Origin: Fidelibacterota bacterium | Lineage (GTDB): Bacteria; Fidelibacterota; Marinisomatia; SCGC-AAA003-L08; JACNLC01 | Assembly: GCA_013204025.1 (NCBI GenBank) | Contig: JABMOW010000074.1 | Location: forward strand, 1-30,085 | Direction: 5' to 3' | Length of the DNA: 30,085 nucleotides | In this document: piece by piece, positions 2,731-27,807 of the stretch | How the letters are laid out: each line of letters opens with the position of its first letter | Numbering within the stretch: the first letter of the stretch is position 1 | Position numbers and translations under genes: made by a program | Notes under the pieces: generated by a model | The model's input: only the letters and a program-made list of their open reading frames with translations | Databases searched by the model: none | What the model was told of the DNA's origin: nothing

Positions 2731-3318
2731 TTATCGGAACAGATGAAACATATATCCTGAAATTATCACCAGTATACATCCAAAGATAAAATTATGTTTC
2801 AGAACGAATTCGTCGAATTGAAAATATAACTTATCAAAAATAAAAGACAATTTCCGTGTAGAAACCCAACGGTCGGTTTTTTGGAAAATCTTTTTAACTG
2901 CTGTAGGACGAAAGATCAATGTCAGCATCAAAACAATTCCAATCGACATGAATGTGATGATAATCCATTTTACTGATATTAGTACAATTTCTACTACAAC
3001 GCCATACTCATATTGATTCATTGATTTCTCAAATTCACCGATGTTTAAATTGTGATTATATATATACATGCATGCTGCAAATCCCACAAGTAGAATCCAG
3101 CCAAGCACCGTGTTGTATTTCATGAAATATTCAGTTGTTTCCCTTGGTACACCAAGAGGTCTGGTGAGGCGTCTGGTGGAGATCCATTGACTTAGATTTC
3201 GATTTAAGCTACCAATTAGATCCGGTTTAAGTATCAAGACCAGCCCCAAACATAAATTTAAAAATCCTGCGAAGGCTAAAAACCAGTCATTAAAATCCAT
3301 GAGAATTATCTTATACAT
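2731..3318 (-). CDS. Hypothetical membrane protein (about 4 TM segments) built from two homologous halves
   Basis: Hydrophobic segments are present. There is an internal duplication: ..LILKPDLIGSLNRNLSQWISTRRLTRP.. versus ..LIFRPTAVKKIFQKTDRWVSTRKLSFI.. It is the last gene downstream of gvpK on the same strand. Confidence 0.55.
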   Translation of the reverse strand: MYKIILMDFNDWFLAFAGFLNLCLGLVLILKPDLIGSLNRNLSQWISTRRLTRPLGVPRETTEYFMKYNTVLGWILLVGFAACMYIYNHNLNIGEFEKSMNQYEYGVVVEIVLISVKWIIITFMSIGIVLMLTLIFRPTAVKKIFQKTDRWVSTRKLSFIFDKLYFQFDEFVLKHNFIFGCILVIISGYMFHLFR

Positions 3319-3491
3319 CTTTTCCTCTGCATTTAATATTGTTGTTATTTATCGCATTATATCTATGGGTACAGATCATGTTTTAGAAATGATGAGTGGG
3401 ATTAACCGGGATATTATTTTAGAATAAAACCACCCATAGACACAGGTTCGCGGTTCCTGTATTGCTATCTTTTTATTTTAGTAAAATTGTT

Positions 3492-3836
3492 TTACATCAA
3501 ATTTCCCAACGGGCCGAGATTGATATTTAAATCTCTATCCGTAAGGTTAAAATGTTTTTTTAGCTCTTCCATTTTCATCTCCAGCTTCATCAGGGTTTCA
3601 CCTAATCTTTCGATTTCTTCTTCCGTTAATGATCCGCCATCAACTCTTCGCATGGCTTGTTTCTCAACTAGTTTACGGATGAGTTCAACGATGGTTAGTA
3701 CTAGTTTTGCCAGTCCTGAATCTGCATTCTCAGGGCTGAGCTCTAGTCTGGATTCTTCTTTGCTTGCTAGTTTTGCCATCTCTTCCGAAATCTCATCAAG
3801 CGAACCGGTATTAAATAGTATTTTATTTTCACTCAT
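3492..3836 (-). CDS. gvpK: Gas vesicle protein GvpK
   Basis: The GvpK-like translation (MSENKILFNTGSLDEISEEMAKLASKE...LAKLVLTIVELIRKLVEKQAMRRVDGG..TEEEIERLGETLMKLEMKMEEL) was recognised by eye. The ATG at 3834-3836 is preferred over the GTG at 3884, which would overlap the upstream gene by 40 nt. Confidence 0.75.
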   Translation of the reverse strand: MSENKILFNTGSLDEISEEMAKLASKEESRLELSPENADSGLAKLVLTIVELIRKLVEKQAMRRVDGGSLTEEEIERLGETLMKLEMKMEELKKHFNLTDRDLNINLGPLGNLM

Positions 3837-3844
3837 CGTACTGA

Positions 3845-4594
3845 TTATTTTATTGTGATATCTACAAAATTGTAGGGAGGCCACTGACCTGTTAAGACAA
3901 ATTTTAGCCCGGTGTATTGGATTTGTAATTCTTTAACTGCCTGAATTAATCCTTCTTTTTCATTCTTTTTCAGTAAAATAACTACATCGATAATAGTTGT
4001 TTCAGTTACCATTTTTTTAAATCTGTGAATTGAGTTCAATTGCGCTAGATGCGTTGTAATATTTTGAATAATTGCATCAATATGTGCTAACAGCGACTCT
4101 TCAAACCGGTGCTCTTTTAGTTTTTTATAGAGGTATTTACTATAAATTGATTTTTCAATGCCTTGTTCGAGTTCAATTGCAGGTTCAGTTTCTGATTTGT
4201 CTTTAAGTTCTGTCTTTAATTTTTCGGAATCACAGAAAACTTTTAAGCCGTATTCAACCTTATTTTCGACTTTCAGGAGATTGCACTGGATTTCATTATA
4301 GTTTCTTTCCAGCATTTTTTTAGTCGTATCGGTTGATTCCATCACAGAACCATACCGAACTGGAAGCAATGTAAATTGTTGGGCAAGGGTTTCAATTACC
4401 CCTGCATATTCAATTGCACTGGATTTATCAACAATTAAATCAGCTCTATTAACGTCGCTTACTACAGCTGCAATTTCGTCAAGCGTGACTACATATAAGT
4501 CCGTGTTCGATAAACCTTTTATTCCGGCCAACAGAGCATCTAATTTTTTAGTGTTCTTTTTTACGGATACTATGGAATAAATCATCATTTCCAT
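3845..4594 (-). CDS. gvpF: GvpF/GvpL-family gas vesicle assembly protein (paralog 5)
   Basis: The N-terminus reads ..IYSIVS....LYVVTLDEIAAVVSD. The C-terminus has the family hallmark ..VTGQWPPYNFVDITIK. Confidence 0.85.
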   Translation of the reverse strand: MEMMIYSIVSVKKNTKKLDALLAGIKGLSNTDLYVVTLDEIAAVVSDVNRADLIVDKSSAIEYAGVIETLAQQFTLLPVRYGSVMESTDTTKKMLERNYNEIQCNLLKVENKVEYGLKVFCDSEKLKTELKDKSETEPAIELEQGIEKSIYSKYLYKKLKEHRFEESLLAHIDAIIQNITTHLAQLNSIHRFKKMVTETTIIDVVILLKKNEKEGLIQAVKELQIQYTGLKFVLTGQWPPYNFVDITIK

Positions 4595-4596
4595 GA

Positions 4597-4800
4597 CTAA
4601 GTACTTATTGATCTTCCGGACTTTAGTTGCTCCATGGTTTCAACCGAACTTAACATTAATTTTACGCCCAAGTATACCAAATCAATATCTGCTACTGAAA
4701 TTACAATATCACCGGTGAGGATGACACCCTTGTTTAAAACTCTATCGAGTAATTCAAGGATGGTGATATCTTTTGACCGATCAATTACATTGTTGTTCAT
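4597..4800 (-). CDS. GvpA-family small hydrophobic protein (GvpM/GvpJ-like)
   Basis: The core ILELLDRVLNKGVILTGDIVISVADIDLVYLGVKLMLSSVETMEQ parallels the GvpA core [42 protein letters not shown]. Confidence 0.8.
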   Translation of the reverse strand: MNNNVIDRSKDITILELLDRVLNKGVILTGDIVISVADIDLVYLGVKLMLSSVETMEQLKSGRSIST

Positions 4801-5594
4801 TACTGTTTTTCTTTAATGGAGATAAAACTAAATGGCGGCCAAGGTCCGGTTGCTTCAATAATAAAGCAGAATTTTTCGTCTTTTTTTATCAGTTTGTCGA
4901 CTGTACTCTTAAAATCATTGACTCTGTTTTTACTTACAAGAAAGGTAGCATTGAGGATCATGGTATTCTCTGTTCCTGTAAATTCTTTCGGGAGCAGGTT
5001 ATTGAGTCGGGTTGATTCGCTCAGATTTTTAAATTCATCATAATATTCCTGTCCATAACTGTTATTAAGTCTGTTCATCTCAGTTTCGATTAGGTCTTCT
5101 TTTTTTCTTTTAAAAAGAAATGCTTTCCCGGGTGAACTTGCCATAATCTTTTTTTCCAGCGTAGCTGTTTCCTCGCTCAATTCGTCAATTTGTTCGCTCA
5201 ACACTTTACGATTACAGTAAATTTTAACCGACCATTCTTCCTTTCCCTGGATATTATGGAAATTTTCGATCAATGAGCTGGAATAATCTGTGATGAATTT
5301 TTTCAAACTGGTTTTAGTTTTATAGATAGTACCAAATTTAAAGGGGATCACAGTACCAGATTCCATAACCTTGCTGATCACCATGATATGCTCCCTCGCG
5401 TTGGATTCCACCCACAAAATATCTGAAATATTCTTTTTGAAGTTTTCTTCGGAGAATTCACTATTAGAAACATATTTAATAATTACATAAAAATTATCGA
5501 TCACAATGGATTTCAAGCCTTTGAACTCCATATTATGATTGAGTTGTGGAGGACTCTTTGTTATGCAATAAAGATATATCAAATCATTTATCAT
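4800..5594 (-). CDS. gvpF: GvpF/GvpL-family gas vesicle assembly protein (paralog 4)
   Basis: The N-terminus reads LIYLYCI..., and the C-terminus ends ..IIEATGPWPPFSFISIKEKQ. It overlaps its neighbours by 1 nt, which suggests translational coupling. Confidence 0.85.
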   Translation of the reverse strand: MINDLIYLYCITKSPPQLNHNMEFKGLKSIVIDNFYVIIKYVSNSEFSEENFKKNISDILWVESNAREHIMVISKVMESGTVIPFKFGTIYKTKTSLKKFITDYSSSLIENFHNIQGKEEWSVKIYCNRKVLSEQIDELSEETATLEKKIMASSPGKAFLFKRKKEDLIETEMNRLNNSYGQEYYDEFKNLSESTRLNNLLPKEFTGTENTMILNATFLVSKNRVNDFKSTVDKLIKKDEKFCFIIEATGPWPPFSFISIKEKQ

Positions 5595-5866
5595 TAATTA
5601 TCCGAACTATCCTTTCCTTCAAAGGAATTTAGTCTTTCGAAAGATGTAATTTCAAGTTTTTCATCTAATTCTACTTTGTAGAATAACCGCACTTGTTTTG
5701 GAGGTAAGTTCATTGATTTTAAGAAAGAATCATTTTCATATACTTCTGAAAAGGAGTTCCATATTTCATTTACTTTTTCAATTTTTATCACCGTTACATC
5801 AGAACAAATGATACTCTCTTTCAGAAACTTAACCACAGCTTTTTTTACATCGATGATATTACTCAT
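5594..5866 (-). CDS. Hypothetical small protein inside the gvp operon (possible uncharacterised gvp accessory protein)
   Basis: An open frame sits in an operon-conserved slot between gvpG and a gvpF/L paralog. The likely start is the internal Met (MSNIIDVKK..), because the longer ORF (to 5917) would overlap gvpG by 26 nt. No motif was recognised. Confidence 0.45.
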   Translation of the reverse strand: MSNIIDVKKAVVKFLKESIICSDVTVIKIEKVNEIWNSFSEVYENDSFLKSMNLPPKQVRLFYKVELDEKLEITSFERLNSFEGKDSSDN

Positions 5867-6120: not shown

Positions 6121-6915
6121 TCAAATTCCTTTCGTGTAAATTGTCAGATTAACAAAATTATATGGAGGCAATGTTCCTACGTATTTGAAGGTCATGAGAT
6201 GACCATATTTTTCATCCAAATTGTTCACCGCTTTGTCAAATGCAGGTTCTGATGTGTTTTTAATAAGGAAGGCGGCATTGAGGATCATCATTTCTCCATA
6301 GTTATCGTTCACCTTGACATCAACCGCATGCGGATTTAATTCAGAGAGAATATTGTTTCGATATGCCTCTCTCTCTTGTTCAAGCGCTTCGGCAACCATT
6401 TCACCAATTTTCATACGTTGATAATGGGTTTTATCTGCTGGCAGGTTCATCAGCTTTTCTTTTAATGACCTGATATCATCATATTTTTCAATGATGCTTT
6501 CATAAATTGCGGCTTCATGGGCAAGTATTTTGAGTCCTAATTCTTTTTTTCCATCCATCGTAATGAGAAGATCGTTGAATTTTTTATAATCCTTTTCGAG
6601 GATTCTCAGAATCCCGGCATCATCGTTGTGTTCTGATATAGTTGAAAAACGGATCGGTAGAACAGTAAACCGCTTCATCACCTCTTCAAGTACCAATTGA
6701 TGGGCGATCATATGAGCTCGTCTGGCCTTATATTGTATGATTGGTGAATTACTTACAACTGCACTGATATCTTTGTAATGGATTCCATAGACCTTATCAG
6801 ATCGATCTCCGATACCAATAGGGCCAAAGTCAATCGAATCTGCGTGCCTTATGATGCCATATATATACTTGCCTTCTTTGGGCGTTTCTTGCATGTTGCT
6901 CATAGTTAACATCAA
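6121..6915 (-). CDS. gvpF: GvpF/GvpL-family gas vesicle assembly protein (paralog 3)
   Basis: The N-terminus reads KYIYGIIRHADSIDFGPIGIG....ISAVVS. The C-terminus ends ..KYVGTLPPYNFVNLTIY. Confidence 0.85.
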   Translation of the reverse strand: MMLTMSNMQETPKEGKYIYGIIRHADSIDFGPIGIGDRSDKVYGIHYKDISAVVSNSPIIQYKARRAHMIAHQLVLEEVMKRFTVLPIRFSTISEHNDDAGILRILEKDYKKFNDLLITMDGKKELGLKILAHEAAIYESIIEKYDDIRSLKEKLMNLPADKTHYQRMKIGEMVAEALEQEREAYRNNILSELNPHAVDVKVNDNYGEMMILNAAFLIKNTSEPAFDKAVNNLDEKYGHLMTFKYVGTLPPYNFVNLTIYTKGI

Positions 6916-6925
6916 ATAAGTTTCA

Positions 6926-7699
6926 TTACAATTCCCACTTTTCGGGAAATATTTTCAGATCTATGAAATTATAAATCGGCAATGGAGCTGTATAAACAAA
7001 GTCGCTTCGGTCCTGGTATTTGATACCAAGATCTGCCATCATGTTATCAAGTTCAATCCCCCTTCCACTGTTCATAAGAATTGCCGTATTCATAAACATA
7101 GCATCTCCACTTGTTTTGTTATGTCTATAATCGAACACCGATCTTCTAAAGGCATCGATAATTTTTTCCGCTTCCACTACTTTCTTTTCAGCCAAAGCAT
7201 GTTCAATCAGTTCTCCGGTTTCAACTATTTTCAGCTTCCTTTTCTCCAGATCAGGCATTTTTTCGATTTTTACCTTGCTATTATGCAATTCAGCGTGTTC
7301 CTTGTCGATCTCCTTGTATATCATACTCATGTCTCTCCAGATTCCCTTTACATTGATTTCCACCTTATTTTCGAACTGCTTGAGCAATTCCATAAACTCG
7401 CTGTATCTGCGGTTAAGCAGGTTGCGAATTTCATCTGGAGTAGCGGCGATGGTACCAAACCTGATGGGGAGCATGCTTTCGAATTCCTTCATCACCGCTT
7501 CTAGAACCTTTTGGTGACTAATAATATTATCTGGGCTTACAACAAACTTGCCAAGCGGATGGTCACTCACCACCATACATAAACCATCGAAACCGATGGT
7601 AGAGACTAGGTCGCATCGCCCCCCAACTCCAATAGGGCCAAAATTGGTGTCATATTTTGTTGATATTATACAATATATATATTTACCATCCCGCTGCAT
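6926..7699 (-). CDS. gvpF: GvpF/GvpL-family gas vesicle assembly protein (paralog 2)
   Basis: The N-terminus reads KYIYCIISTKYDTNFGPIGVGG....LCMVVSD. The C-terminus ends ..VYTAPLPIYNFIDLKIF. Confidence 0.85.
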   Translation of the reverse strand: MQRDGKYIYCIISTKYDTNFGPIGVGGRCDLVSTIGFDGLCMVVSDHPLGKFVVSPDNIISHQKVLEAVMKEFESMLPIRFGTIAATPDEIRNLLNRRYSEFMELLKQFENKVEINVKGIWRDMSMIYKEIDKEHAELHNSKVKIEKMPDLEKRKLKIVETGELIEHALAEKKVVEAEKIIDAFRRSVFDYRHNKTSGDAMFMNTAILMNSGRGIELDNMMADLGIKYQDRSDFVYTAPLPIYNFIDLKIFPEKWEL

Positions 7700-7700
7700 A

Positions 7701-8741
7701 TTACTCCATTATTTTTACTAAAATCAAATTTTCAATTACTTTTTCCTTCGCAAGTGAAATATTATCATCATTTGAAGATTGTCTTATCGCTGCTGAATAA
7801 TTAATCAATGTACGATAGGCCATATTGATCTTGTTAAAGCTTTCTTTATCGCCATTTCTAGGATGCGCATCGGGATGAAATAATTTCGCTTTTTCCAGAT
7901 ACGCCTTTTTAATTTCTGATTCCGTTGTTTCATCCCCGAGTCTAAGCTCTATTATTGCCTGTAACACAATTTCCAGATTTAGCTCATTAACTTCAAGGGT
8001 GTAAAAACTATAACACGGTAGAGGTCCGACTAATTTGAAGTTCAACAAACCCTTGTATTCTTCATCAAGTTGGTCAACTATCTTTTCAAACAAACCCTGA
8101 TTGTTTATATTGATGAGAAACGCAGAGTTGGTTACCATTTCGTCATTCATTACTTGATGCGTTTTGATATCGAGACTGCATTGTGATAATGAATCCAGAA
8201 TATTGAATTCAGTTTTTGTGTTTTTTTCTTTTAATTTTGACTGAACCAACATCCCTATTTTCATCTGGTCAGCCTGCGAAAGTATATCTATTTTTTTCTG
8301 TATTTCATCTCTTAAAGATACGATTTCGGGATGTCCAGAAATTTCTTTAAGAATCTCCGGGAAATTGTCCCATGTGGCTGCCAAGTCAATTTCTGTCAGA
8401 TATTCAGTTTTCTTCAGAGTTGTGATAATTAATTCATAGCCATTGGCAAGTACTTTAATAACCTCTTGCTTTGATCCAACAACCGTATAAAACTTCATAG
8501 GGATAAGAGTGGAGGATCCTTTTAACTGGAGTGCTTCAATCGTTTTTTGATGATGAATCAATAAATACCCAAGCGACTTCTTGTTCAACTGATCAAGTTG
8601 GATATCCTCCGTGTCAGAGACTATAGCCAATATATTTTTAAAGCTGATGGTATAAAGCTCTGAATTTTCCAATAATCTTAACATATCCGTGTTGTGATTT
8701 TCCAACATAATACCGTAGATATAAATTTTATTTGTACTCAT
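7701..8741 (-). CDS. gvpF: GvpF/GvpL-family protein fused to a C-terminal DnaJ-type J-domain (HPD motif)
   Basis: The N-terminal ~255 aa are GvpF/L-like (KIYIYGIM..., ..KLVGPLPCYSFYTLEV). The C-terminal ~70 aa read ..SEIKKAYLEKAKLFHPDAHPRNGDKESFNKINMAYRTLINY, which has the helix II-HPD-helix III arrangement of a J-domain. Confidence 0.85.
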   Translation of the reverse strand: MSTNKIYIYGIMLENHNTDMLRLLENSELYTISFKNILAIVSDTEDIQLDQLNKKSLGYLLIHHQKTIEALQLKGSSTLIPMKFYTVVGSKQEVIKVLANGYELIITTLKKTEYLTEIDLAATWDNFPEILKEISGHPEIVSLRDEIQKKIDILSQADQMKIGMLVQSKLKEKNTKTEFNILDSLSQCSLDIKTHQVMNDEMVTNSAFLININNQGLFEKIVDQLDEEYKGLLNFKLVGPLPCYSFYTLEVNELNLEIVLQAIIELRLGDETTESEIKKAYLEKAKLFHPDAHPRNGDKESFNKINMAYRTLINYSAAIRQSSNDDNISLAKEKVIENLILVKIME

Positions 8742-8752
8742 GCGATGTGATC

Positions 8753-10906
8753 TTATTTCTTCTTTGCGTTTTGTGTTAATACCAGTTCGATCGCTTCTTC
8801 AAAATGTTTCGTCAGGATGATGATTTCTCCGGTAAGTTCAGATGACTTTCTACTTTCTTTTTCTATCAAAGCGCGAATTGCGAGCATGGCTGCTTTTTGG
8901 CAAATAAATTCGATATCTGATCCAGTTAAGCTATCTGTTTTCAGAGCTAGTTTTTTCAGATCTACTTTTTTATCAAGGGGTTTATTCTGGGTATGGATAC
9001 TGAATATTTTTTCCCTGGTAAATAAATCGGGCATAGGCAATTCAAAGATCAGATCGAACCTGCCACTTCTTAGTAAAGCCGGGTCAATTAAATCGATCCT
9101 ATTGGTTGCTGCCAGTACGATTACCCCTTTTAAGTCTTCAATGCCATCCATTTCAGTAAGGAACTGGCCGATCACACGTTCGATAACACCGGAACCGCCA
9201 TTATTGCGTCTGGGGGTAAGGCTGTCTATTTCGTCAAGGAACAAGATGCACGGTGATGCTTGTTTAGCCAATCTGAAGATCTCCCTTACTCCTTTTTCTG
9301 ATTCACCGATATAACGGCTCAAAATCTGTGGACCTTTTACGGAGATAAAATTAACTCCACTTTCACTTGCCAATGCTTTTGCAAGGTAGGTCTTACCTGT
9401 CCCGGGTTTTCCGTGAAGTATAATTCCTTTGGGTGGTTTGGTGGCGGTTTTTTTGAAAAGGTCGGCATATTTCAATGGCCATTCAACGGTTTCCATTAAA
9501 GCATTTTTGATGTCATCCAGACCACCAACATTTTCCCATTTAACATTGGGGATTTCCACAAATACTTCTCTGATGGCCGACGGTTCTACTTCTTTCATCG
9601 CATCAAGAAAATTATCCATGGTTACTTCAAGCGACATTAATAATTCGTATGGGATCTCTGCTATCTCGAAATTGATTTGAGGAAGTATTTTCCGCAAAGC
9701 AGTCATCGCAGCTTCGCGGGCTAAGGCTTCCAAATCCGCTCCCACAAAACCATGGGTGATTTCGGCCAGTTTTTCCATATCTACATCCATCGACAAGGGG
9801 ATACCCCGAGTATGGATATGAAGGATTTCCAGTCTGCCCTTTTTATCAGGAATGGAAATAGAAATTTCTCTATCGAACCGCCCAGGTCGTCTCAAAGCAG
9901 GATCTATGGAATTAGGAATATTGGTCGCGCCAATCACGATGACCTTACCCCTTGATTCCAGTCCGTCCATCAGCGACAACAGTTGAGCGACCACGCGTTT
10001 CTCCACCTGTTTCTCTCCGCCCATTTCTTCTCTCTTGGGCGCAATGGCATCAATTTCATCTATGAAAATAATGGAAGGCGCATGTGCCTGAGCCTCTTCA
10101 AAAATCTTACGGATTCTCCCTTCGCTCTCCCCATAAAATTTCCCCATGATCTCAGGGCCAGAAATGTTGATGAAATAGGCATCCGTTTCATGAGCCACAG
10201 CTCTAACGATGAGCGTTTTTCCGGTTCCCGGAGGACCATAAAGGAAAACTCCTTTGGGTGGCTGAACACCAAGTCGTTCGAAAATCTCAGGATATTTTAG
10301 CGGAAGTTCAATCATTTCTCTGATGCGTTGAACTTGGTTTCCAAGCCCCCCAATGTCCTCGTAGGAAACCTTACTTTTGCGTTTCCCGTCTTGCTTTGCC
10401 AATTCAAGCTGAATAATAGTATTTGGGTGTATTAATACAACGCCCTCGGGATTGATACCGGTTACAGTGTAATCAACTGAACGAGACCCAAACAGGACTG
10501 CTTTAATTCTATCGCCTTTTGTTACCGGAAGACCATTGATCAGCGAGCCAATGTACTTTGTGTCATCGGCTTTGTATAAAGAACCGGTTTTTGTATCAGA
10601 TTTGAGTTTTATTTTTGTCGCCTGGCGGCAAGTTGTTTTAATAATTTTTACTTTTTCATCGATCCCTGCCTGTGCATTTTCCCTGGTGATCCCGTCAATC
10701 TGAATGATACTCATATCTCTGTCATCAGGATAACATGGCATTATTCTTACAGGGGTAGCTCGTTTGCCTTCAATCACAACTACGTCGCCACTTTCCAAGC
10801 CGATCAATTTCATATCTTTTGGATCGATCCTGGCGATGGCTCTTCCAACATCCTTTACCAGGGCTTCTTTAACACGTAATATTATTTCATCTTTGATTTT
10901 TACCAT
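8753..10906 (-). CDS. cdc48: Cdc48/VCP/VAT-like double-ring AAA+ ATPase (N-domain plus D1 plus D2)
   Basis: The N-domain is Cdc48-like ([41 protein letters not shown]). There are two Walker A motifs ([16 protein letters not shown]) and two Walker B motifs ([20 protein letters not shown]). The protein is 717 aa. Confidence 0.9.
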
Positions 10907-10909
10907 GGT

Positions 10910-11830
10910 TTACGGTTTCTTTGGTTGATCTCCAAAAAGATACATACTCAATTTTTTCAATGCTTTCAGCCCTTTGATTTCTTCAGGAAACATGGGTACT
11001 TCAATCATATTCAAATTACTAAATATTTCACTAATCTGGCTCAAATATGGTAATTGGCTCGCCCTTCGCCTTTTACAAAAATCACAATCCTCAGAAACCA
11101 CTACATTGTTTACGATGATCTGTCTCGAAATGATTCCGGATTTACCAAGATCCGCTAATAGTCTGTCCGTTTCTATAATTGCCATCGCTTCGGGGATACA
11201 AACAGGGATAAATTCGCATTTGGAGTTATTTTTCAAGATGTTTTCGATCCTTTTAACCGTTTTTTTAAGGTTGAGTAAAAAGGTGTCTACCTTATCCTGC
11301 TTATATGAACCTGAAAAGCTGGTGACCATATAACGGTATTTCCATCTCATCTTGGCGGCAACTTTTATCCATGCATCCAATAATTTTGGAGATGAAATCA
11401 GTCGCAATGCGTGACCAGTGGGTGCGGTATCCACAACATATTTATCATACTCGCCTTCTTCAATAAAATCAATGATGGTTTTAAAACTCATCACCTCATC
11501 AATGCCGGGTATCGATAAGGTCAGCATCTCGTCGATGTCCTCATTGTCAAGATTTGTAGAAGTTTCCAGAAGTTTTTTAAGCTCGTTATGGTGTGCTGTT
11601 TTGAATACCGAAAGTGCCTCGTCAGCAACCACTTCTATAGCCGACAGGTTGTCTACACCATCAACCTTTACCACATTAAAACCAATTTGTTGTTCGAGAC
11701 AATCCGACACAGAATGAGCCGGATCGGTGGAGATGAGAAGCGTTCTGTGATTTTCAGACAACGCCAGCGCTGTGGTTAAAGCACAACTGGTTTTTCCAAC
11801 GCCACCCTTTCCTCCGAAAATGATGAGCTT
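10910..11830 (-). CDS. Get3/ArsA-family P-loop ATPase with a CxxC motif; the N-terminus and start codon are unresolved
   Basis: The ORF carries the ArsA/Get3 signature VVDTAPTGHALRL and a CDFC (CxxC) motif. The tracked ATG (11761) lies downstream of the P-loop. The frame stays open upstream to the TAG at 11882-11884 and encodes KLIIFGGKGGVGKTSCALTTALALSENHRT, but contains no ATG, GTG or TTG. The 5' end given here is therefore approximate. Confidence 0.8.
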   Translation of the reverse strand, partial: KLIIFGGKGGVGKTSCALTTALALSENHRTLLISTDPAHSVSDCLEQQIGFNVVKVDGVDNLSAIEVVADEALSVFKTAHHNELKKLLETSTNLDNEDIDEMLTLSIPGIDEVMSFKTIIDFIEEGEYDKYVVDTAPTGHALRLISSPKLLDAWIKVAAKMRWKYRYMVTSFSGSYKQDKVDTFLLNLKKTVKRIENILKNNSKCEFIPVCIPEAMAIIETDRLLADLGKSGIISRQIIVNNVVVSEDCDFCKRRRASQLPYLSQISEIFSNLNMIEVPMFPEEIKGLKALKKLSMYLFGDQPKKP

Positions 11831-11868
11831 TAGATCGTCGTTTCCTAATCCGGTAAGGGTCGTGTTTT

Positions 11869-12396
11869 TTATTTTGCTATCCTAATTTCAAGGATTCCAT
11901 TATTAAATTTGTGATTTAGGTTTTTACTTACGACTTTTACCGGAAGAAGCAGCTCTTTGCGGTATGTCCTATTATTGCTGACCGCCGAAATTTCAAGTAT
12001 ATCTTCTTTTAGGTCGATTTTAAGGTCAACTTCCTCTATTCCCGGCATTTCAGCAATGATGACGATCTCATTCTTTTCATCAAATATGTCGGTTATCGGC
12101 TCCCGTTCTTCATCCACTCTTGGTCCTTCGGGTGTTTTTTTTATGTTTCCGAAAGTCTCAACTTGTGGTTCACCTCCAACTGCCGTGTTGACGGTAAAGC
12201 CATAAATGCCTTTCATGCCTTTTTTGATATGATCAAAATTAATCTCACCTTCCTTGCTAATTCCCCCCTTTTCCTCGAGCTTCCCAGCAAGGTCAACTAA
12301 TTTTTCGATGCCTTTGAACAGACCGCCAAGTCCGAAAAGATCAGAATTGGCTTCGCCCTTTTTTTCTTTATTTTTTTCGTTTTCCATTTTAAACAT
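11869..12396 (-). CDS. gvpH: Hsp20/alpha-crystallin-domain protein (GvpH-like)
   Basis: The C-terminal alpha-crystallin domain reads ..ITDIFDEKNEIVIIAEMPGIEEVDLKIDLKEDILEISAV...YRKELLLPVKV....FNNGILEIRIAK. The N-terminus is Gly/Lys-rich. Confidence 0.75.
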   Translation of the reverse strand: MFKMENEKNKEKKGEANSDLFGLGGLFKGIEKLVDLAGKLEEKGGISKEGEINFDHIKKGMKGIYGFTVNTAVGGEPQVETFGNIKKTPEGPRVDEEREPITDIFDEKNEIVIIAEMPGIEEVDLKIDLKEDILEISAVSNNRTYRKELLLPVKVVSKNLNHKFNNGILEIRIAK

Positions 12397-12431: not shown

Positions 12432-12731
12432 TTAAGATGGTTTACTGATAGTCTCAAGTTTTTCCAAGCGCGCCTCAATAGTTGACTGTTGCTGCATAAG
12501 CTCTTTTTCCCTGGCTTTCGTGGAAAGGTAGGTGTCTTCCTGCCACCAGTTAATCCCCATCTCCATGGCTTTATCCACCGAAGCCACCAGTAGCCTAATT
12601 TTAATGGTTAACAGGTCTATATCTGCTATCTGAATTTTTATATCACCAGCAATAACGATTCCTTTATCGAGAACTCTTTCAAGAATATCGGCAAGACCAG
12701 TGGCGTTAATTGAATGCATGGGTTCTGGCAT
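12432..12731 (-). CDS. gvpJ: GvpJ-like (GvpA family with a C-terminal extension)
   Basis: The GvpA-like core LADILERVLDKGIVIAGDIKIQIADIDLLTIKIRLLVASVDKAMEMG is followed by a ~35-aa charged, helical tail. Confidence 0.8.
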   Translation of the reverse strand: MPEPMHSINATGLADILERVLDKGIVIAGDIKIQIADIDLLTIKIRLLVASVDKAMEMGINWWQEDTYLSTKAREKELMQQQSTIEARLEKLETISKPS

Positions 12732-14071: not shown

Positions 14072-14260
14072 TTACATAAATTCTTGGTTGGACAATTGTT
14101 CAACTGTGCTTTTCCAGATGTCCCTTGCCTCTTCAATTTCTTTTGTTATCTGTTCCTTTGCAAGTAAATAAGCTTTTTTCTTGGCTTTAAACCGGATTAA
14201 TGCTTCTTGTCTTTTCAGTAAATTTTTCCTGATATTATTTACGGCATTATTCAATGTCAA
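14072..14260 (-). CDS. Hypothetical small helical protein (62 aa), translationally coupled to the zinc-finger gene
   Basis: There is a 4-nt ATGA overlap with the upstream ORF. The protein is basic and helical. No motif was recognised. Confidence 0.45.
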   Translation of the reverse strand: MTLNNAVNNIRKNLLKRQEALIRFKAKKKAYLLAKEQITKEIEEARDIWKSTVEQLSNQEFM

Positions 14261-14574
14261 TTACCTTTATATCCCTTACCACTACAACGTGTACAGGGCA
14301 AGCCATCGCTCTCTTTTCCATTTCCTTTGCATTTCGTACATTTTGTATTGCTCTCACAATTATTGCTCCCTTTCCCCCGACAAACTATGCACGGAACCCT
14401 GGCTCCAAGCGGGTTTCTGCCTGTACCCAAACAAAAAACGCATGTAACTGTCGACTCCCCTGCTTCAACCTGTCTTGTACCATCACAAACCAGACAAACT
14501 GACATCGGCGACAGTAAATCGAAAGGGTCTTTTCCGGTTCCACTACAATATGCGCATTTGATTACTTTTTTCAT
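14257..14574 (-). CDS. Stand-alone DnaJ-type cysteine-rich zinc-finger protein (6x CxxCxGxG)
   Basis: Six repeats are present: CAYCSGTG, CLVCDGTR, CVFCLGTG, CIVCRGKG, CTKCKGNG and CTRCSGKG. The protein has no J-domain and no other domain. Confidence 0.8.
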   Translation of the reverse strand: MKKVIKCAYCSGTGKDPFDLLSPMSVCLVCDGTRQVEAGESTVTCVFCLGTGRNPLGARVPCIVCRGKGSNNCESNTKCTKCKGNGKESDGLPCTRCSGKGYKGN

Positions 14575-14668: not shown

Positions 14669-16024
14669 TTATTTTAGCGGAAAGTAAATATTTTCAACTT
14701 TTTGGACTTTCCCTGCATTCAACAAGATTTTAGCTATAAATCCAAGTTTCATTCTGGTTTCTCCAAGGGGTTTTTCCATTTCCGAAATTTTCACACCTTT
14801 GGGATGTTTGTTGATATAATCAAGTATCTTATTTTCCAAAGTTTTCGGACTTGTTGGTTCTGGAGTGTTAACCAGGGGTTTAGGTTTAGCTGGAGTTTCA
14901 TTTGTTGCCATGAGAACTACGGGGTTTGGTTTGGTTTCAACAGGGATTTCCTTTGTTGGCATTGCTGCCACAGGCGGTTTTGGTTTAGCCGGAGTTTCCT
15001 CTGTTGCCATGAGAACTACGGGGTTTGGTTTGGTTTCAACAGGAGTTTCCTGAGTTTCCATTGCAGCCACAGGCACTTTTGGTTTGGTTTCTGCCGGAGT
15101 TTCCTTTTTTGCCTGATCCTTTACTACTTGCTTAGGCGATATAATAATGCCCATTTTTCTTATTTGAGATATAGAGTCTTGCATATTTTTCCATGTTGCA
15201 GTAGCCTCTCCTCTGTCTTTTGATAGATAACCAAGCATTCCATTAGTATATTTCTGAATTCCATTTACTTCATTACGAATTCCTTTAATAGCCCCATGTA
15301 TCCCGGTCATGATTGACCTGTATCCGCTAAGTCTTTCTGCTTCTCCAGTATCAAGGTCTTTTCTCAACTTTTGAGCCATTTGTTGGTTTTCTGTACTTAT
15401 TTCAGACAATTTTTTTTGAAACCCATTCAACAGGGTTTTGGTATATTCAACTCTTTCAGTCAGATTTTTACTTAATTCTGCTCTAAGCTCATCCGTCATT
15501 TCCATATGCTCATTCTCAAATCTTTTGAGCATATCGTTGGTGTTTTTGAAAATACTCAAAACCTCGTCGTTGATACTTTTAATATCATCGTTGATATTTT
15601 TCATGAGCGTACCAAATTCCTTCATCCGATTTTTTTCATTCCCCAATCTGTCAGCTTTTCCTTGTGCAAAAGATTTATTTAATTCGTCTGCCATTTGTTC
15701 TCTATTGGCAGCGAATTCATTGATCATATTTAAGGTGCAAGTTTGAATTGTCTTTACATCTTTCTGAATGGATGTGATCGTGCTATGGATATTCGTCATT
15801 AATTCATTGTAGGTGTTCAGGCGTTCTTTTTCATCACCTGCTAGGCCTTTTTTTAAGGCCATAGCATTGGCATTTATAACACTGGTCATTTTCTGGTGAT
15901 CTTTTCGAAAACCATCGAGGGTTTTCTGTACATCGCTTACAAGATCTTCATTTTCCTTGATTCGCTGTTTAAATGAAGCAAGTATGTCTTCACTCAAATT
16001 TTTCATTTCTGATGCTAATCCCAT
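14669..16024 (-). CDS. Repeat-rich helical protein, candidate GvpC-like gas-vesicle shell/scaffold protein, with a C-terminal winged-helix-like domain
   Basis: It contains ~60-aa degenerate helical repeats built around (D/G)x(K/A)(E/D)RL(N/S)xY(N/R)x(L/I)MT(N/G)IH(S/G)xI(T/K)xI(Q/R)x(D/E)V(K/N)xIQ, written with slashes for alternatives. Two and a half tandem 33-aa Pro/Lys-rich repeats follow (ETKPNPVVLMATEETPAKPKPPVAAM..). The C-terminal ~60 aa (..KILDYINKHPKGVKISEMEKPLGETRMKLGFIAKILLNAGKV) look like a winged helix. Confidence 0.7.
   Translation of the reverse strand: MGLASEMKNLSEDILASFKQRIKENEDLVSDVQKTLDGFRKDHQKMTSVINANAMALKKGLAGDEKERLNTYNELMTNIHSTITSIQKDVKTIQTCTLNMINEFAANREQMADELNKSFAQGKADRLGNEKNRMKEFGTLMKNINDDIKSINDEVLSIFKNTNDMLKRFENEHMEMTDELRAELSKNLTERVEYTKTLLNGFQKKLSEISTENQQMAQKLRKDLDTGEAERLSGYRSIMTGIHGAIKGIRNEVNGIQKYTNGMLGYLSKDRGEATATWKNMQDSISQIRKMGIIISPKQVVKDQAKKETPAETKPKVPVAAMETQETPVETKPNPVVLMATEETPAKPKPPVAAMPTKEIPVETKPNPVVLMATNETPAKPKPLVNTPEPTSPKTLENKILDYINKHPKGVKISEMEKPLGETRMKLGFIAKILLNAGKVQKVENIYFPLK
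14874..15094. repeat. 99-bp tandem repeat (x2.3) inside the CDS, encoding 33-aa Pro/Lys-rich units
   Basis: Units at 14874-14972 and 14973-15071 are nearly identical. A partial third unit follows. Confidence 0.8.
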
Positions 16025-16820: not shown

Positions 16821-17027
16821 TTATGCGGCTTTCGCGGTCAATCCTATTGCTTCGGCATACTTCAGGTATGTTTCAACAGATGCAACTACTATTCTTGCTT
16901 CGATTGCAAGAAGTTCGATACCTACTAATGAAACTCTAACCCATGCATCGACTACGACACCCTTATCAAGGATTCGGTCGATAACCTCTACGAGGCTGGA
17001 TGATCCGATGGTTTTTTCTACAGCCAT
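16821..17027 (-). CDS. gvpA: Major gas vesicle structural protein GvpA
   Basis: The sequence [62 protein letters not shown] is canonical for GvpA. A strong SD (AAGGAG) lies 7 nt upstream of the ATG. Confidence 0.95.
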
Positions 17028-17283: not shown

Positions 17284-18681
17284 TTACTTTTCGCTTTTAC
17301 AAATGGTGATGTCGTACTTTTTCATTTTTCGGATGAGGGCATCGCGAGTTATTCCAAGTTCATCAGCTGTTGCTTTTTGATTATATTTGCAGTTCTTTAA
17401 TACTTTTCGAATTGTTTTAATCTCTTGAATTCTCAGATTGGTTGAATCAACACGATCCTCTGATGAGGAGATATTATGCGGTTTTACCGGAAAGTCATTT
17501 ACCCGGAGTACGTTGCTTTTGCAAAGGATAATGGCTCTCTCAGTCATATTTTTCAATTCCCTGACATTTCCAGGAAAATCATATTTTACTAGTGCAGTAA
17601 TAGCTTCATTATCAAGCCGCATGCTAGGTTTATTAAATTGTGTTGCATAGAAATCAACAAAATGGATCAACAGGGGTTTGATGTCTTCAGGCCTATCCCT
17701 AAGTGCCGGGATATGTATATGTAGGGTATTGAGTCGGTGAAGCAAATCAAGCCTGAATTCTTTTTTCTCTACACTTTTTTGAATATCATGGTTTGTGGCA
17801 GAAATGATTCGGAAATCAGTCTTAATCGGTTTTGTTTCTCCCACCCTAGTGATCACTTTTTCTTCGGTGGCACGAAGAATTTTCGCCTGCAGATTAAAAG
17901 GCATGTCGGCAATTTCATCAAGGAACAAGGTTCCCTGATTACACACTTCAAAAAAGCCCATCTTATCGGAAATGGCACCGGTAAATGATCCTTTTTTATG
18001 GCCAAAAAATTCGCTTTCCAGAAGTGATTCAGTAATGGCACTGCTGTTAACGGCACAAAATATATTGTCTTTTTTTAAGCTTGAAAAATGTATAATTCTG
18101 GCAATATTCTCTTTTCCGGTCCCACTTTCTCCTGTGATCAGCACATTTGCATCTGGGTAATTTGCGGCAGTGATAGCTTGTTCGAATACCTCAAGAATCT
18201 GTGGGCTGACACCAATAAATTGCCGGTCGATTTTTTCTTCGAGGGTTTTTGAAATTAATGAGTTTTTTTCTTCCATCTGCTTCAATCTTCTTTGCATCTG
18301 AAGAAATTTTTGAGTACGCTTAATTGCAATCTGAATGTCGATATGCCTGAAAGGTTTACGCAAATAATCGAATGCTCCAAGCCTCATGGCTTTGATCACT
18401 GTATCCATATCGCCGTGAGCCGAAACGATGATAACCTCCATGGCAGGGAATTGAATTTTTACATCTTTTAAAATATCCAGGCCATTTATACCCGGCAACC
18501 GCACATCAAGGATGAGAAGGTCAATGTTATGACTTTTTAATAATTTTTGCGCCTCCTGCTCAGTATTTGCCTCAAATGCCACAAAGCCCGAATTCTGAAA
18601 TAATTCATGCAATTCTTCAGTAAATTGTTTTTCATCGTCCAGGATCAGGATCTCAAGTTTGTGTTGATTTTCCATACTCAT
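17284..18681 (-). CDS. Sigma-54-dependent response regulator (NtrC family: REC, AAA+ sigma-54 activator, Fis-type HTH)
   Basis: The REC domain has the Asp in LILDVRLPGINGLD. The Walker A reads GESGTGKE. A GSFTGA variant of the GAFTGA loop is present. The C-terminal HTH reads ..ATADELGITRDALIRKMKKY. It overlaps the kinase gene by 4 nt. Confidence 0.9.
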   Translation of the reverse strand: MSMENQHKLEILILDDEKQFTEELHELFQNSGFVAFEANTEQEAQKLLKSHNIDLLILDVRLPGINGLDILKDVKIQFPAMEVIIVSAHGDMDTVIKAMRLGAFDYLRKPFRHIDIQIAIKRTQKFLQMQRRLKQMEEKNSLISKTLEEKIDRQFIGVSPQILEVFEQAITAANYPDANVLITGESGTGKENIARIIHFSSLKKDNIFCAVNSSAITESLLESEFFGHKKGSFTGAISDKMGFFEVCNQGTLFLDEIADMPFNLQAKILRATEEKVITRVGETKPIKTDFRIISATNHDIQKSVEKKEFRLDLLHRLNTLHIHIPALRDRPEDIKPLLIHFVDFYATQFNKPSMRLDNEAITALVKYDFPGNVRELKNMTERAIILCKSNVLRVNDFPVKPHNISSSEDRVDSTNLRIQEIKTIRKVLKNCKYNQKATADELGITRDALIRKMKKYDITICKSEK

Positions 18682-21600
18682 TCTTTATTTTGTAAATTTA
18701 TAATTATATGAAAAGTTGAGCCATCAAATATATTGCTCGATACTTCTATTGTGCCATTCATCTCTTGTATTATCCGATATGAAATTGACAATCCAAGTCC
18801 AGTACCTTTCCCGGTATCCTTGGTTGTATAAAAAGGAAGCATAATATGTTCACTATCCTCTTCGCTGATGCCGGTACCATTATCGCTAATTTCAATAATA
18901 AGATCTTGGTCCTCCAGAAATGATCTAATCCCGACGAACATATCAAATTCCTCTGATAATTTGCCTTTCTTTTCAAGCAGCGCATCTTTGGCATTTGATA
19001 ACAGATTAAGGATAACCTGTTCAAATTTTATATTATTACCAATAATTAAAGGAATACTTTCTTCCAATTGTAGATTTAGACTGATGGCCAAATGTTTAAA
19101 TTGTTCCGATATCATCATGATAGTATTTTGGATACTTACATTAATATCAAAGGCTGTTAGAAGGTAATCATCGCGGCTTCTTGAAAATGCCTTGACGTGA
19201 TCTATGATGTTTCTTATCCGTGTAATATTTTCAAAAATTTTATTCGATTTTTTCTTTAGGTATTCTTTTTCGATTATTTCCTCTTTGGTAGCCTCGTATA
19301 AGACATTATCCATAACCATTGATATGATATTTAATGGCTGGTTAATTTCATGTGCAATGCCAGAGGCCATTTCTCCCAGACTGGCCATACGATCAGAGTG
19401 AATCTGCTTTATTTCCATTTTCTTGCGTTGGGAAATATCGCGGATAATAACCATGAATGCAATTGACTTTCCATCCGGGTCCTGAATTAAAGTAGAGTTG
19501 ATTTCACCTATAAGTGTCGATCGGTCTTGTTTTCTGAATTGTATTTCAATATTTTGTTCAAGCCCTTCATCCATTGTCTTTTCAATAAGCTTTTTTAACT
19601 TATTTCTTCCAGCAGATGGAACAAATTTGGAAAAATGTTTGCCCAGTAAGTCACTTCTGAAGTCGGCGCCAATTAATTCAAGCCCGATATCAGAAACCTC
19701 GATAATGATTCCTTTCATGTTGAATATTAAAATACCATCGGGAGAAGCATTTAGCATCGTTTTGTATTTCTCTTCGCTTACTTTTAGTGCGTGTTCTGCT
19801 ATTTTGCGTTCTGTGATGTCGCGTATAAATGCATAGTATCGTCCGCCCTCGGTCAGCACGAAATTAACACTGATCTCAATATTTATAGTTCTGCCGTCTT
19901 TACAACGATGTTGGGTCTCAAAGCGATCATAACCAAAATCTCTCACCAACTGTATGTGTGGTTCGATCTCTTCCGAGTTTTCCTGAATATCAACATCTTT
20001 GAAGCTCATTTTTAACAATTCTTCCCGGCTGTAGCCGATTAAATTGCAATAGGCATTGTTCACATCCAGAAAGCGTCCTTGAGAGTCCGACATAATGAAA
20101 CCATCCATCGCCGCTTTAATAATCGATCCATGCTCTTCCTCGGAATGCATGCGCTTGGTGATGTCTTCGAAAGTAGAGTATACTTGATATGCTTTCTTTT
20201 TTCCCGGGTTGAACAGAGGGATAGAATTAATATTTATCCAACGAGTTTCTTCAATTTTAGGATTAAATACTCCCATAATTGCATTGCTTACCGGTTTCCC
20301 TGTTTTTAAAGCCACCATGGCAGGGTGTGTATCTCCGGGAAAATCCGTGCCGTCCTCGTGGATGGATTTCCATCGTGGATCAGTAGAGGTGCGTCCTTGC
20401 ATCTGATCTAACGAAAGTCCCAGGATGTGCTCTGCCGAGGGATTTGCTGAAATTATCTTTCCCTTTTTATCTTGATGCACTACACCCTGGATCATGGTTT
20501 CAAACAAATTGCGAAATTTTATTTCGCTGTCCCTTCTTTCATTCTCAAATTGAATTCGTTGAGTGATATCTGATGAAATGCCTAACAAATATTCCGATTT
20601 CCCATATTTATCAAGGATAGGGATTTTTTGTGTCTGTAAAATTCTTATGCCTTTATTCTTGGTATGAATCGATTCTTCAGGCATATACGTCAGACCAGAT
20701 CCCTTTAATGTTTTCTTATCCTTTGAAGTAAAGAAATCAGCTTCTTTCTTAGTAAAAAAGTCATAATCATTTTTACCAAATAGTTCATCTCTCGAATAAC
20801 CAAGCAGTTCTTCGCCAGCTTTATTAAGGCGTACAAAGGTCAAATCTTTGGCATCTTTAAGGAAGATCATATCAGGAATATTTTCTATAATGGAGTCTAG
20901 AAGTAGATTAGTTCTTTTTAACTCATCCTCCATCTGCTTGCGCTGTGTGATGTCGTGAACAATACCATCAAAATATAAAATGGTCCCGGTATCGTCGTAT
21001 ACCACTTTCGCACTTTCGCTTACAAAAAGTTTCGTTCCGTCTTGCTTTATCCAGGCAGATTCAAATTCAAGTATTTGTCCATCTCTTTCAATTTTTCCCA
21101 TAAAAACTGAATGCTGATAATTGGGATCAAATCCTTCCTCTTCCAAATTACGATGTGCAAGTTCTTCAAACGAGGAAAAGCCCAGCATTTTTACCAAGGT
21201 TGGATTCGCCATCAGGATTCTACCATCTTGAGTAGTTCGATATAATCCGATTAAAGTATTTTCATAAACACTACGGAATCGTTTGTCACTGTCTTTTTGT
21301 TCCTTCTCCACTTGCTTGCGTTGGGTTATGTCAAGGTTAATGCCCACCCATTTCATTATTTTACCAGTATCATCCTTAATCGGTCTTCCGATAGCTAGAA
21401 CATTTCGATAGCTGCCGTCTTTTGCTCTGAATTGGTGTTCCTTCTCATAGTCTGCCCCAGTTTCGACACAACTGATCCAGTGATCTTTTGTCGGTTCAAC
21501 ATCCTCAGGTGGTAATAAACTCAGCCAGCCAAATTTTTGTATTTGTTCCATTGTCATACCGGTCATTTCAAGGAACGAAGAACTGCAATACGTACAATAG

Positions 21601-27011: not shown

Positions 27012-27807
27012 TTACCTTTTCCCCATTACTGCTTTGATCTTTTCTATCAAGTCTTTGGATACATAGGGTTTTTGGATAAAACCAGCCAGTCCTTTTCCTA
27101 CGAACTGCTGGGTAGCATCTTGCTCATTGTAGCCACTTGTGAGAATCACTTTTATATCGGGTTTTAGCTTGCGAATCTCGCGGAAAACCTGTATTCCATC
27201 CTTATGGGGCATGGTAAGATCTAATAGTACACCTACAATTTTATCTGCATGTTCTTTGAATATTTCAACTGCCTCATGACCATCATCTGCGGTTAACACA
27301 TCAAAGCTGAGTTTTTTAAGACATGTGTTGGCCAACGGTCAGGACGGCTTCCTCATCATCGGTAATCAAAAAGGTACCCTGTCCCTGCCACTCATTATCT
27401 TTCTAAAGAGAATTATCTGTGAGTGATTTGCTGCCATCAATATCTTCATACAGTGGGAATAATACTTTGAAAGTCGTTCCCTTGCCTTCTTCAGAATAGA
27501 TCTTGACCATCCCGTGATGCCCTCTTACAATGCCTAATACAGTAGATAAATCTAACCCTCTCTCTGTGAATTTAGTTGTGAAGAAGGGTTCAAAGATTTT
27601 TGCCATGGTATCTTTGGAAAAATGAATTGGATTTTGAATCGCTGATTCCAGAAATAACTCTGAATAGTGTGTAATTTCATTATTCACTCCAAATAAAAAA
27701 TACGTAGACAGAAGGTTGCCAACAAACTCATATCGAAGGTCATTTTCATGTGGTTTTAACAAATTTCCGTTATTTGTCAAATATAAATGGTAGCAAGATT
27801 TGGGCAC
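27012..27807 (-). pseudogene. Decayed C-terminal remnant of a hybrid histidine kinase (degenerate and partial HATPase_c plus REC), with an in-frame TAG and a frameshift
   Basis: 27403-27807 encodes a degenerate N-box/G1 region (VGNLLSTYFLFG...LFLESAIQNPIH) and then a genuine G2 region (KIFEPFFTTKFTERGLDLS..GKGTTFKVLFPL). A TAG at 27403-27405 is followed in frame by KDNEWQGQGTFLITDDEEAVLTV, which is the start of a REC domain. The rest of the REC (LKKLSFDVLTADDGHEAVEIF..DLTMPHKDG..) is in another frame, 27012-27335. Confidence 0.7.

Follow-up and report, generated by a model that had tools for sequence, protein, structure and literature searches.

The window analysed here (the whole 30,085-nucleotide [nt] stretch of contig JABMOW010000074.1) holds a 21-gene gas-vesicle (gvp) cluster on the minus strand. 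One gene of this cluster, which we call gvpF-J, encodes a protein with a GvpF-like domain and a C-terminal J-domain, the domain with which co-chaperones of the DnaJ type act on Hsp70. The gene and its parts are as follows (aa, amino acids).

7701-8741, minus strand: gvpF-J gene; 346-aa GvpF-like protein with a C-terminal J-domain, ATG at 8741
8001-8726, minus strand: GvpL_GvpF domain (Pfam PF06386), residues 6-247
7773-7976, minus strand: J-domain helices I-III, residues 256-323; the Pfam envelope, residues 266-314, corresponds to bases 7800-7946
7869-7877, minus strand: His-Pro-Asp (HPD) tripeptide, residues 289-291, in the loop between helices II and III
7704-7772, minus strand: family-specific C-terminal tail, residues 324-346, with a conserved hydrophobic end, ..ENLILVKI(K/M)E

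The open reading frame (ORF) is real, and all the peptides quoted for it in the initial annotation occur in the 346-aa translation; its strand needed correcting to minus, the plus-strand translation of 7701-8741 having stops throughout. The gene starts 11 nt past the stop codon of a Cdc48-like gene, its own stop codon occupies 7701-7703, and the next gvpF/L gene starts 1 nt away.

Domains and fold of GvpF-J

Residues ~1-255 had been read as a GvpF/L sequence, and Pfam agrees: PF06386 matches residues 6-247 with an E-value of 6.6e-44 and 151.2 bits (curated threshold 23.6). Among PDB sequences the N-terminal part is matched by GvpF (6l5d, 5.5e-15; 4qsg, 5.4e-12), and a Foldseek search with the model of GvpF-J returned the same two structures at E-values of 4e-15 to 1e-13 and target-normalised TM-scores of 0.75-0.76. 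On the NCBIfam model for cyanobacterial GvpF the protein scores 70.9 bits, far under the equivalog cut-off of 350, and it has no GvpL match among the NCBIfam models. By these sequence comparisons the N-terminal domain is classed as GvpF-like rather than GvpL-like.

The J-domain claimed for the C-terminus was borne out when the DnaJ profile was run as the initial annotation had proposed. PF00226 matches residues 266-314 (E-value 1.5e-10) with 41.5 bits, above the gathering score of 27.8, and the match spans profile positions 6-55 of 63. At E≤1 the protein contains PF06386 and PF00226 alone, with no glycine/phenylalanine-rich (G/F) region, zinc finger or DnaJ C-terminal domain (PF01556), and its domain make-up would place it among the class-C (type III) J-domain proteins. 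Residues 270-314 match the J-domains of DNAJA1 (around 3e-4), DnaJ2 and others among PDB sequences. A profile of the C-terminal module, built from the last 96 residues of 32 family members, matched 55 solved chains, J-domains without exception (best human HSP40/DNAJB1, 1.2e-10), and all 55 matches are restricted to residues about 264-315.

The AlphaFold model of GvpF-J is a confident single-chain prediction in which the J helices occupy residues 256-265, 274-288 and 299-323. HPD (residues 289-291) stands in the loop between helix II and helix III, where the initial annotation had put it. A Foldseek search of the PDB with the whole chain gave GvpF matches only and left the small J module undetected, so that residues 251-346 were modelled alone for a second search; the solved structures closest to this isolated module are J-domains, its three-helix fold being nearest to Tim14/Tim16 and DNAJC27. 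The C-terminal module of GvpF-J is a genuine, conserved J-domain.

The tail that follows the J-domain has features of its own. Residues 338-346 (7704-7730, minus strand) read ..NLILVKIME here and NLILVKIKE in the family consensus. In the full-length model residues 340-345 form a beta-strand, whereas the isolated module is modelled with a helix there. The extreme C-terminus has a lysine-flanked hydrophobic core like that of a typical DnaK-binding peptide. This terminal strand may be a docking or pseudo-substrate element.

Conservation and spread of the fusion

Is the fusion peculiar to this contig? The survey of homologs for similar C-terminal extensions that had been recommended found the same architecture in 120 close clusters and in 120 profile matches. 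The close clusters (56-100% identity, nearly all 345-346 aa) have both Pfam domains in 120 of the 120 listed, and a profile search, which gave 681 clusters at E≤1e-20, likewise has both domains in 120 of the 120 listed. A HMMER search over 1.84 billion representatives returned 147 matches at E≤1e-30, nearly all of 330-370 aa and with alignments that extend through the J region; 143 of these form the diverse set used below for PF00226 and HPD counts. In a scan of one genome per GTDB species, at least 153 genomes, isolates included, carry a GvpF-J relative. The best 80 of the 153 loci align with about residues 1-346, and nearly all of them belong to Bacteroidota (Bacteroidales, Prolixibacteraceae, Mariniphaga, Algoriphagus, Lentimicrobiaceae). 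Named sources in the profile search include Omnitrophica, Planctomycetota/Phycisphaerae, Schekmanbacteria and sequences labelled 'Patescibacteria group', and one distant member comes from Dehalococcoidia (Chloroflexota). The GvpF-J fusion is ancient and widespread across several bacterial phyla. Any Pfam scan reveals its architecture, and public databases list it under non-specific names: NCBI uses 'GvpL/GvpF family gas vesicle protein' and JGI sometimes 'DnaJ-domain-containing protein'.

In the 120 close clusters HPD is near-invariant (H289 100%, P290 100%, D291 99%), and K278, Y281, K284, A285, F302, A308, Y309 and the terminal ..N-L-I-L-V-K-I-K-E are strongly conserved. The candidate Hsp70-contact residues K278, K279, Y281, K284, K286 and F302 are conserved. 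In the diverse set PF00226 is present in 133 of 143 representatives and HPD is kept in 130. Degenerate tripeptides (RPD, SRD, RSD, NTS, QSH, QGH, QPD, YRS, KPA, QRS and QSN) occur in P0125, P0131, P0132, P0141, P0222, P0233, P0241, P0256, P0261, P0266 and P0269, which are possibly pseudo-J lineages.

The J region is about as similar to its counterpart in relatives as the GvpF core is, with 61.8 versus 60.4% identity to the window protein in close relatives and 32.6 versus 31.8% in distant ones. The nonsynonymous to synonymous substitution ratio (dN/dS, omega) was pooled over 15 independent pairs because per-pair values on the 60-codon J region are noisy (single pairs gave 0.04 to 1.6); the pooled value is 0.14 in the core and 0.25 in the tail; that of the J region, 0.20, shows purifying selection.

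Hsp70 genes and the surrounding gas-vesicle cluster

Hsp70 genes were sought by tblastn in the window and 83 other loci, with an approximate DnaK nucleotide-binding domain as the query. Only three loci matched; in each the gene lies at the 3' end of the gvp cluster and is read in the same direction. The Hsp70 of one of them (L055) is complete at 604 aa and scores 826 bits on PF00012. Its homologs at 79-100% identity (78 clusters, including the isolate Flavobacterium sp. GSP27) are all about 595-615 aa long, whereas canonical DnaKs of 637-645 aa were found at 77-80% identity only. All eight of the ~600-aa Hsp70s examined (the three tblastn loci and five that were looked up) lie in gvp clusters that carry GvpF-J. 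In the Flavobacterium isolate hsp70 starts 4 nt past gvpK, and in two loci it lies between the last gvpF/L gene and gvpK. By comparison, a canonical 639-aa DnaK used as a control (L089) has an unrelated neighbourhood outside the gvp cluster. The positions of the gvp-linked genes are 14764-16578 in L055, 14973-16778 in L065, from 13428 in L047, and 10001-~11800 in L084-L088.

The short Hsp70 is 79% identical to canonical Bacteroidota DnaK, gap-free across 596 residues; all that it lacks is the terminal ..DEVTDVDFEEVKDK motif (..DVDFEEVKDK) and the G/P/Q-rich disordered tail. Since canonical DnaK is universal and the two forms split by length, we infer that the short Hsp70 is an extra copy and not the sole DnaK of those genomes. 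An Hsp70 paralog inside gvp operons is the neighbourhood to be expected if the J-domain works with Hsp70, and HPD stands at the J position in 11 of 11 fusion proteins from Hsp70-bearing loci and distant phyla. The motif AGEIAGL is common to the short and the long Bacteroidota DnaKs and is uninformative on HPD contact.

In the window itself the order of the cluster is GvpA, two coiled-coil/repeat proteins, a six-motif zinc-finger protein, a 62-aa ORF, GvpN, a 104-aa ORF, a GvpJ-like protein, Hsp20, a Get3/ArsA-family ATPase, a Cdc48-family AAA+ ATPase, GvpF-J, two GvpF-like paralogs, GvpG, GvpO, a GvpL-like protein, a GvpS/M-like protein, a second GvpL-like protein and GvpK. GvpF-J is one of five GvpF/L genes, all on the same strand. 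The genes that matter for what follows are:

3845-4594, minus strand: GvpL-like paralog (Pfam/NCBIfam matches)
4597-4800, minus strand: GvpS/M-like protein of the GvpA family (PF00741), a possible client
4800-5594, minus strand: GvpL-like paralog (Pfam/NCBIfam matches)
6121-6915, minus strand: GvpF-like paralog (Pfam/NCBIfam matches)
6926-7699, minus strand: GvpF-like paralog, the next gene downstream of GvpF-J
8753-10906, minus strand: Cdc48-family double-ring AAA+ ATPase (Pfam; TIGR01243, 904 bits, cut-off 803)
10910-11866, minus strand: single-domain Get3/TRC40/ArsA-family ATPase (TIGR00345, 226.7 bits, cut-off 135)
11869-12396, minus strand: Hsp20/alpha-crystallin small heat-shock protein (PF00011; NF041800, 131 bits, under the cut-off of 140)
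12432-12731, minus strand: GvpJ-like protein of the GvpA family (PF00741), a possible client
14257-14574, minus strand: 105-aa protein of DnaJ-type (cysteine-rich-type) zinc-finger repeats, with six CxxCxGxG-like motifs
16821-17027, minus strand: GvpA, the major hydrophobic shell protein (PF00741), the most likely client

The cluster is syntenic in all 27 related Bacteroidota loci of at least 19 kb (the long loci), with Hsp20 in 27, the Get3-like gene in 25 and the zinc-finger gene in 23. A Cdc48-like gene lies directly upstream of GvpF-J in 74 of the 74 loci with a visible upstream neighbour, and a GvpF paralog directly downstream in 76 of 76. One Omnitrophota and one Phycisphaerae contig have the same gene order, and a Schekmanbacteria contig has part of it (Hsp20, the fusion and a GvpF paralog, with GvpG and GvpK further on). 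A cluster of Polaribacter irgensii with ArsA homologs, hsp20 and five L/F paralogs has been described, with no mention of a J-domain (Castillo and Saier, PMC2963123).

The Get3/ArsA-like ORF was listed from a TTG at 11761 (283 aa); the open frame continues upstream and encodes the P-loop ..LKLIIFGGKGGVGKT.. A truncation that removed the P-loop was considered and rejected, the short ORF being a product of the ORF lister's start-codon rule and not of a real deletion. The window has ACG at the position of the orthologs' ATG, and no canonical start precedes the P-loop. Possible causes are a sequencing error, a lost start codon or the use of a non-canonical one.

Several other genes deserve a note. 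Downstream of gvpA, 14669-16024 (minus strand) encodes a 451-aa coiled-coil protein with a Pro/Thr/Lys-rich C-terminal region and near-exact repeats ..ETPVETKPNPVVLMAT.ETPAKPKP..; with about 55% identity it is conserved in 26 of the 27 long loci, and it is possibly an outer-surface protein like GvpC. Directly upstream of gvpA lies a sigma-54-dependent response regulator (17284-18681, minus strand; receiver, Sigma54_activat and HTH_8 domains), whose gene is overlapped by that of a 1398-aa multi-PAS hybrid histidine kinase (18678-22874, minus strand). The regulator is conserved in 10 of the 27 long loci and also stands beside the Omnitrophota cluster L081; this recurrence suggests sigma-54 control of the operon. 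Further off (27012-27807, minus strand), a 134-aa ORF with only the C-terminal part of HATPase_c is followed by a 107-aa ORF whose receiver domain lacks the first ~14 profile positions; the pair looks like a hybrid histidine kinase broken into fragments.

A soluble protein of ~226-231 aa with no Pfam match recurs at the gvpK/hsp70 end of 27 loci from four phyla, at 45-86% identity, with the pattern MR.LIYVPIIH..AD.GS...KIYQDGM...GSKN...ILFIGA.H (L055 14057-14740, L081 16211-16891, L082 18154-18834, L084 11819-12511, L086 9287-9976, L087 12422-13117). It is absent from the window, where gvpK is followed instead by an unrelated 195-aa membrane ORF (2731-3318) that is conserved in none of the related loci.

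NCBI files the source contig under Candidatus Marinimicrobia, and the gvp genes of the window are closest to those of Bacteroidota metagenome-assembled genomes: the fusion protein stands at 70% identity, and GvpN and the Cdc48-like protein average 91% and 88% over the 27 long loci. The genes flanking the cluster have no counterparts in these 27 loci. The taxonomic mismatch could reflect horizontal transfer of the gvp cluster or mis-binning.

Proposed Hsp70 recruitment and comparison with known systems

What would a J-domain do on a gas-vesicle protein? GvpF is known as the primary, transient binder of GvpA that is displaced by GvpG; it has been proposed to be chaperone-like, possibly acting co-translationally, and GvpL binds GvpJ and GvpM (PMC11445434, PMC9501494, PMC6107691). 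Binding of GvpF to GvpA is reported in two of these papers (PMC11445434, PMC9501494). We think it likely that GvpF-J is a class-C J-domain co-chaperone dedicated to gas-vesicle biogenesis, bringing Hsp70 to proteins of the GvpA family. The GvpF-like domain would be the client- or assembly-binding module; its homology with GvpF proteins studied by experiment makes GvpA and the GvpJ-like and GvpS/M-like proteins its probable partners. The J-domain would dock through the HPD loop and helix II onto ATP-bound Hsp70 (DnaK) and trigger ATP hydrolysis, and Hsp70 would then clamp the client held by the GvpF module. As a result, an aggregation-prone shell protein would be kept soluble, or released and passed to the growing vesicle, to GvpG or to the Cdc48-like unfoldase. 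The client's identity, the stimulation of Hsp70 and the direction of hand-off are inferred. The initial annotation had likewise predicted that the fusion recruits Hsp70, and the domain scores, the fold, the position of HPD, its conservation, purifying selection and the Hsp70 genes of related operons all support that prediction. The neighbouring Hsp20, Get3-like and Cdc48-like genes suggest that the fusion belongs to a larger, putatively dedicated proteostasis block.

Several observations weigh against this interpretation. The client of the GvpF-like domain is extrapolated from Halobacterium and Bacillus megaterium. The tblastn search with the DnaK nucleotide-binding domain found no Hsp70 in the window, so the partner there would be the housekeeping DnaK; together with its presence in only 3 of 46 evaluable close loci, this makes the Hsp70 association a minority elaboration. 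The four-helix J fold that had been expected held for the three canonical helices of the model and failed for helix IV, which is absent, the Pfam match ending before it, and in Foldseek searches the small J module reached weak E-values only (0.065 upward). In the Bacteroidota clade residues 282 and 283 are Leu and Glu, at positions that are mostly Arg/Lys across the wider family, and the basic patch of helix II is therefore thinner. Finally, HPD is lost in 11 of 143 full-length representatives, so that the module can persist without canonical Hsp70 activation.

An alternative that we consider unlikely has the same parts working in the opposite direction, with Hsp70, the small heat-shock protein and the Cdc48-like unfoldase recruited for the removal, recycling or quality control of misassembled or collapsed GvpA, much as auxilin recruits Hsc70 to uncoat clathrin. 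The gene block does resemble a disaggregation set of small heat-shock protein, Hsp70-J pair and AAA+ ATPase, and GvpA is extremely aggregation-prone (PMC9501494), but published data put GvpF at an early stage of assembly, at which it binds GvpA transiently and as the primary partner (PMC11445434). The sequence evidence fits assembly and the clean-up of misassembled GvpA alike.

Less probable again is an Hsp70-independent role in which the J-like module has a structural function or serves for docking, perhaps to the neighbouring Cdc48-like ATPase or to the vesicle surface, and HPD is kept for some other reason. Against it, HPD is near-invariant in the clade and kept in 130 of the 143 diverse members, unlike in Tim16-type pseudo-J domains; related clusters have taken an Hsp70 paralog into the operon; and we know of no J-domain that acts on an AAA+ ATPase.

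The initial annotation also proposed that gvpF-J and the zinc-finger gene at 14257-14574 are a DnaJ split over two gvp genes, that is, the halves of one type-I DnaJ working in trans. This did not hold up, and we give it even poorer odds than a docking role. In its favour, the two genes occur together in 22-23 of the 27 long Bacteroidota loci and in the Omnitrophota, Phycisphaerae and Schekmanbacteria clusters, and the zinc-finger protein weakly matches the DnaJ cysteine-rich region (PF00684, 25.5 bits; TIGR02349, 24.4 bits). The whole cluster is conserved together, however, so this co-occurrence singles out no partnership, and the fusion is found without a detectable zinc-finger gene in 4-5 of the 27 loci. 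The PF00684 score is under the gathering score of 32.7, and the best PDB sequence matches are to Anti-TRAP (E-value 0.05). DnaJ has four CxxCxGxG motifs and two Zn centres; in the zinc-finger protein the motifs number six (among them one CxxCxGxR), which implies three Zn centres. Neither protein has a G/F region or, at E≤1, the PF01556 substrate-binding and dimerisation domain. Seven genes separate the two in an order that is fixed across loci, with no adjacency or signature of gene fission. The zinc-finger protein is instead a genuine member of the cluster, and the best comparison for it is with the DnaJ-like zinc-finger proteins that stand alone. Six-motif proteins occur in all three distant phyla examined, with two copies in Omnitrophota (L081 ~3185-3508, ~5435-5815), two in Phycisphaerae (L082 1920-2285, 4104-4538) and one in Schekmanbacteria (L083 1093-1500), and where there are two copies these have diverged.

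That an assembly or frameshift error joined gvpF/L to an unrelated dnaJ fragment can be practically dismissed: beyond the metagenome-assembled source of the contig nothing speaks for it, and against it stand the ~346-aa architecture, which recurs in 120 close clusters, in 120 profile matches and in the genomes of 153 species, isolates among them, the purifying selection that spans the junction, and a confident single-chain model.

The co-chaperone interpretation of GvpF-J can be extended, more tentatively, to the cluster as a whole. Gas-vesicle assembly in this widespread cluster type might be Hsp70-dependent and run by an operon-encoded chaperone relay. Members of such a relay could include Hsp20, the Get3-like and Cdc48-like ATPases, the six-motif zinc-finger protein, GvpF-J and, in about a tenth of clusters, the tail-less Hsp70. 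Beyond this cluster type, GvpF proteins might be client adaptors of ATP-driven chaperones, and the fusion might then be the covalent version of an overlooked non-covalent cooperation between GvpF and Hsp70 in Anabaena, B. megaterium and Halobacterium, which is a speculative suggestion. The conserved terminal strand (..NLILVKIK..), as a docking or pseudo-substrate element, may gate the J-domain.

Neither the GvpF/L-J fusion nor a gvp-linked Hsp70 was found described in the open-access full-text literature searched, and the papers on GvpF and GvpL cited here do not mention Hsp70 or DnaJ (PMC11445434, PMC9501494, PMC6107691, PMC10344784). GvpF is the sole accessory protein with crystal structures, which left its function unexplained, and its proposed chaperone-like role came without an identified energy source (PMC11445434). 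GvpF-J bears on how the very hydrophobic GvpA is kept soluble while it feeds a growing gas-filled shell. It points to a part for Hsp70 in building gas vesicles, and the fusion and the operon Hsp70 turn the 'chaperone-like GvpF' into a testable Hsp70-adaptor mechanism, for which Flavobacterium sp. GSP27 and LS1P28 are suitable cultured strains. There may be a practical side as well: many gas-vesicle clusters fail in E. coli or mammalian cells (PMC10344784) and cause proteotoxic stress (PMC12848028). For gas-vesicle engineering, a hidden requirement could be that the cluster's J-protein is compatible with the Hsp70 of the host.

How does GvpF-J compare with known systems? Its operon shares with the IbpAB-DnaK/DnaJ-ClpB network an Hsp20, a J-protein, a double-ring AAA+ ATPase and, in some relatives, an Hsp70. 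It differs in that the AAA+ ATPase is of the Cdc48 family, not ClpB/Hsp104, in that a Get3-like ATPase is added, and in that the whole set lies within a single organelle operon, which it presumably serves alone. With type I DnaJ there is in common an HPD J-domain and a CxxCxGxG zinc-finger protein in the same operon, but GvpF-J is without the G/F region, C-terminal domains I/II and dimerisation domain, and the zinc finger is separate. Stand-alone DnaJ-like zinc-finger proteins act as assembly holdases; like plant BSD2 and Bacillus Anti-TRAP, the 14257-14574 protein is small and consists of CxxCxGxG-type repeats only, but it has six motifs, and all its matches are under curated thresholds.

GvpF and GvpL proteins that have been characterised (Microcystis 4QSG, Anabaena 6L5D, and those of Halobacterium and B. 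megaterium) share with GvpF-J the PF06386 domain, a two-lobed alpha+beta fold and a gvp operon with other GvpF/L paralogs, GvpG and GvpK, but are about 230-280 aa long and have no J-domain. The closest parallel is with class C J-proteins such as HscB (with IscU), Tim14 (Pam18), auxilin, DjlA and Mycoplasma TopJ, which commit a general Hsp70 to one specific assembly process; TopJ, of the Mycoplasma terminal organelle, is among the NCBIfam J-domain matches. Like GvpF-J, these proteins carry an HPD J-domain on an unrelated targeting or client module and have no G/F, zinc-finger or DnaJ C-terminal domains. GvpF-J stands apart from them in its targeting module, a GvpF/L fold that we did not find described for any J-protein, in the C-terminal position of its J-domain, behind which comes a conserved tail that ends in a hydrophobic strand, and in its gas-vesicle operon setting. 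GvpF-J is a class-C J-protein with a GvpF client module or, equivalently, a GvpF subfamily with a J-domain.

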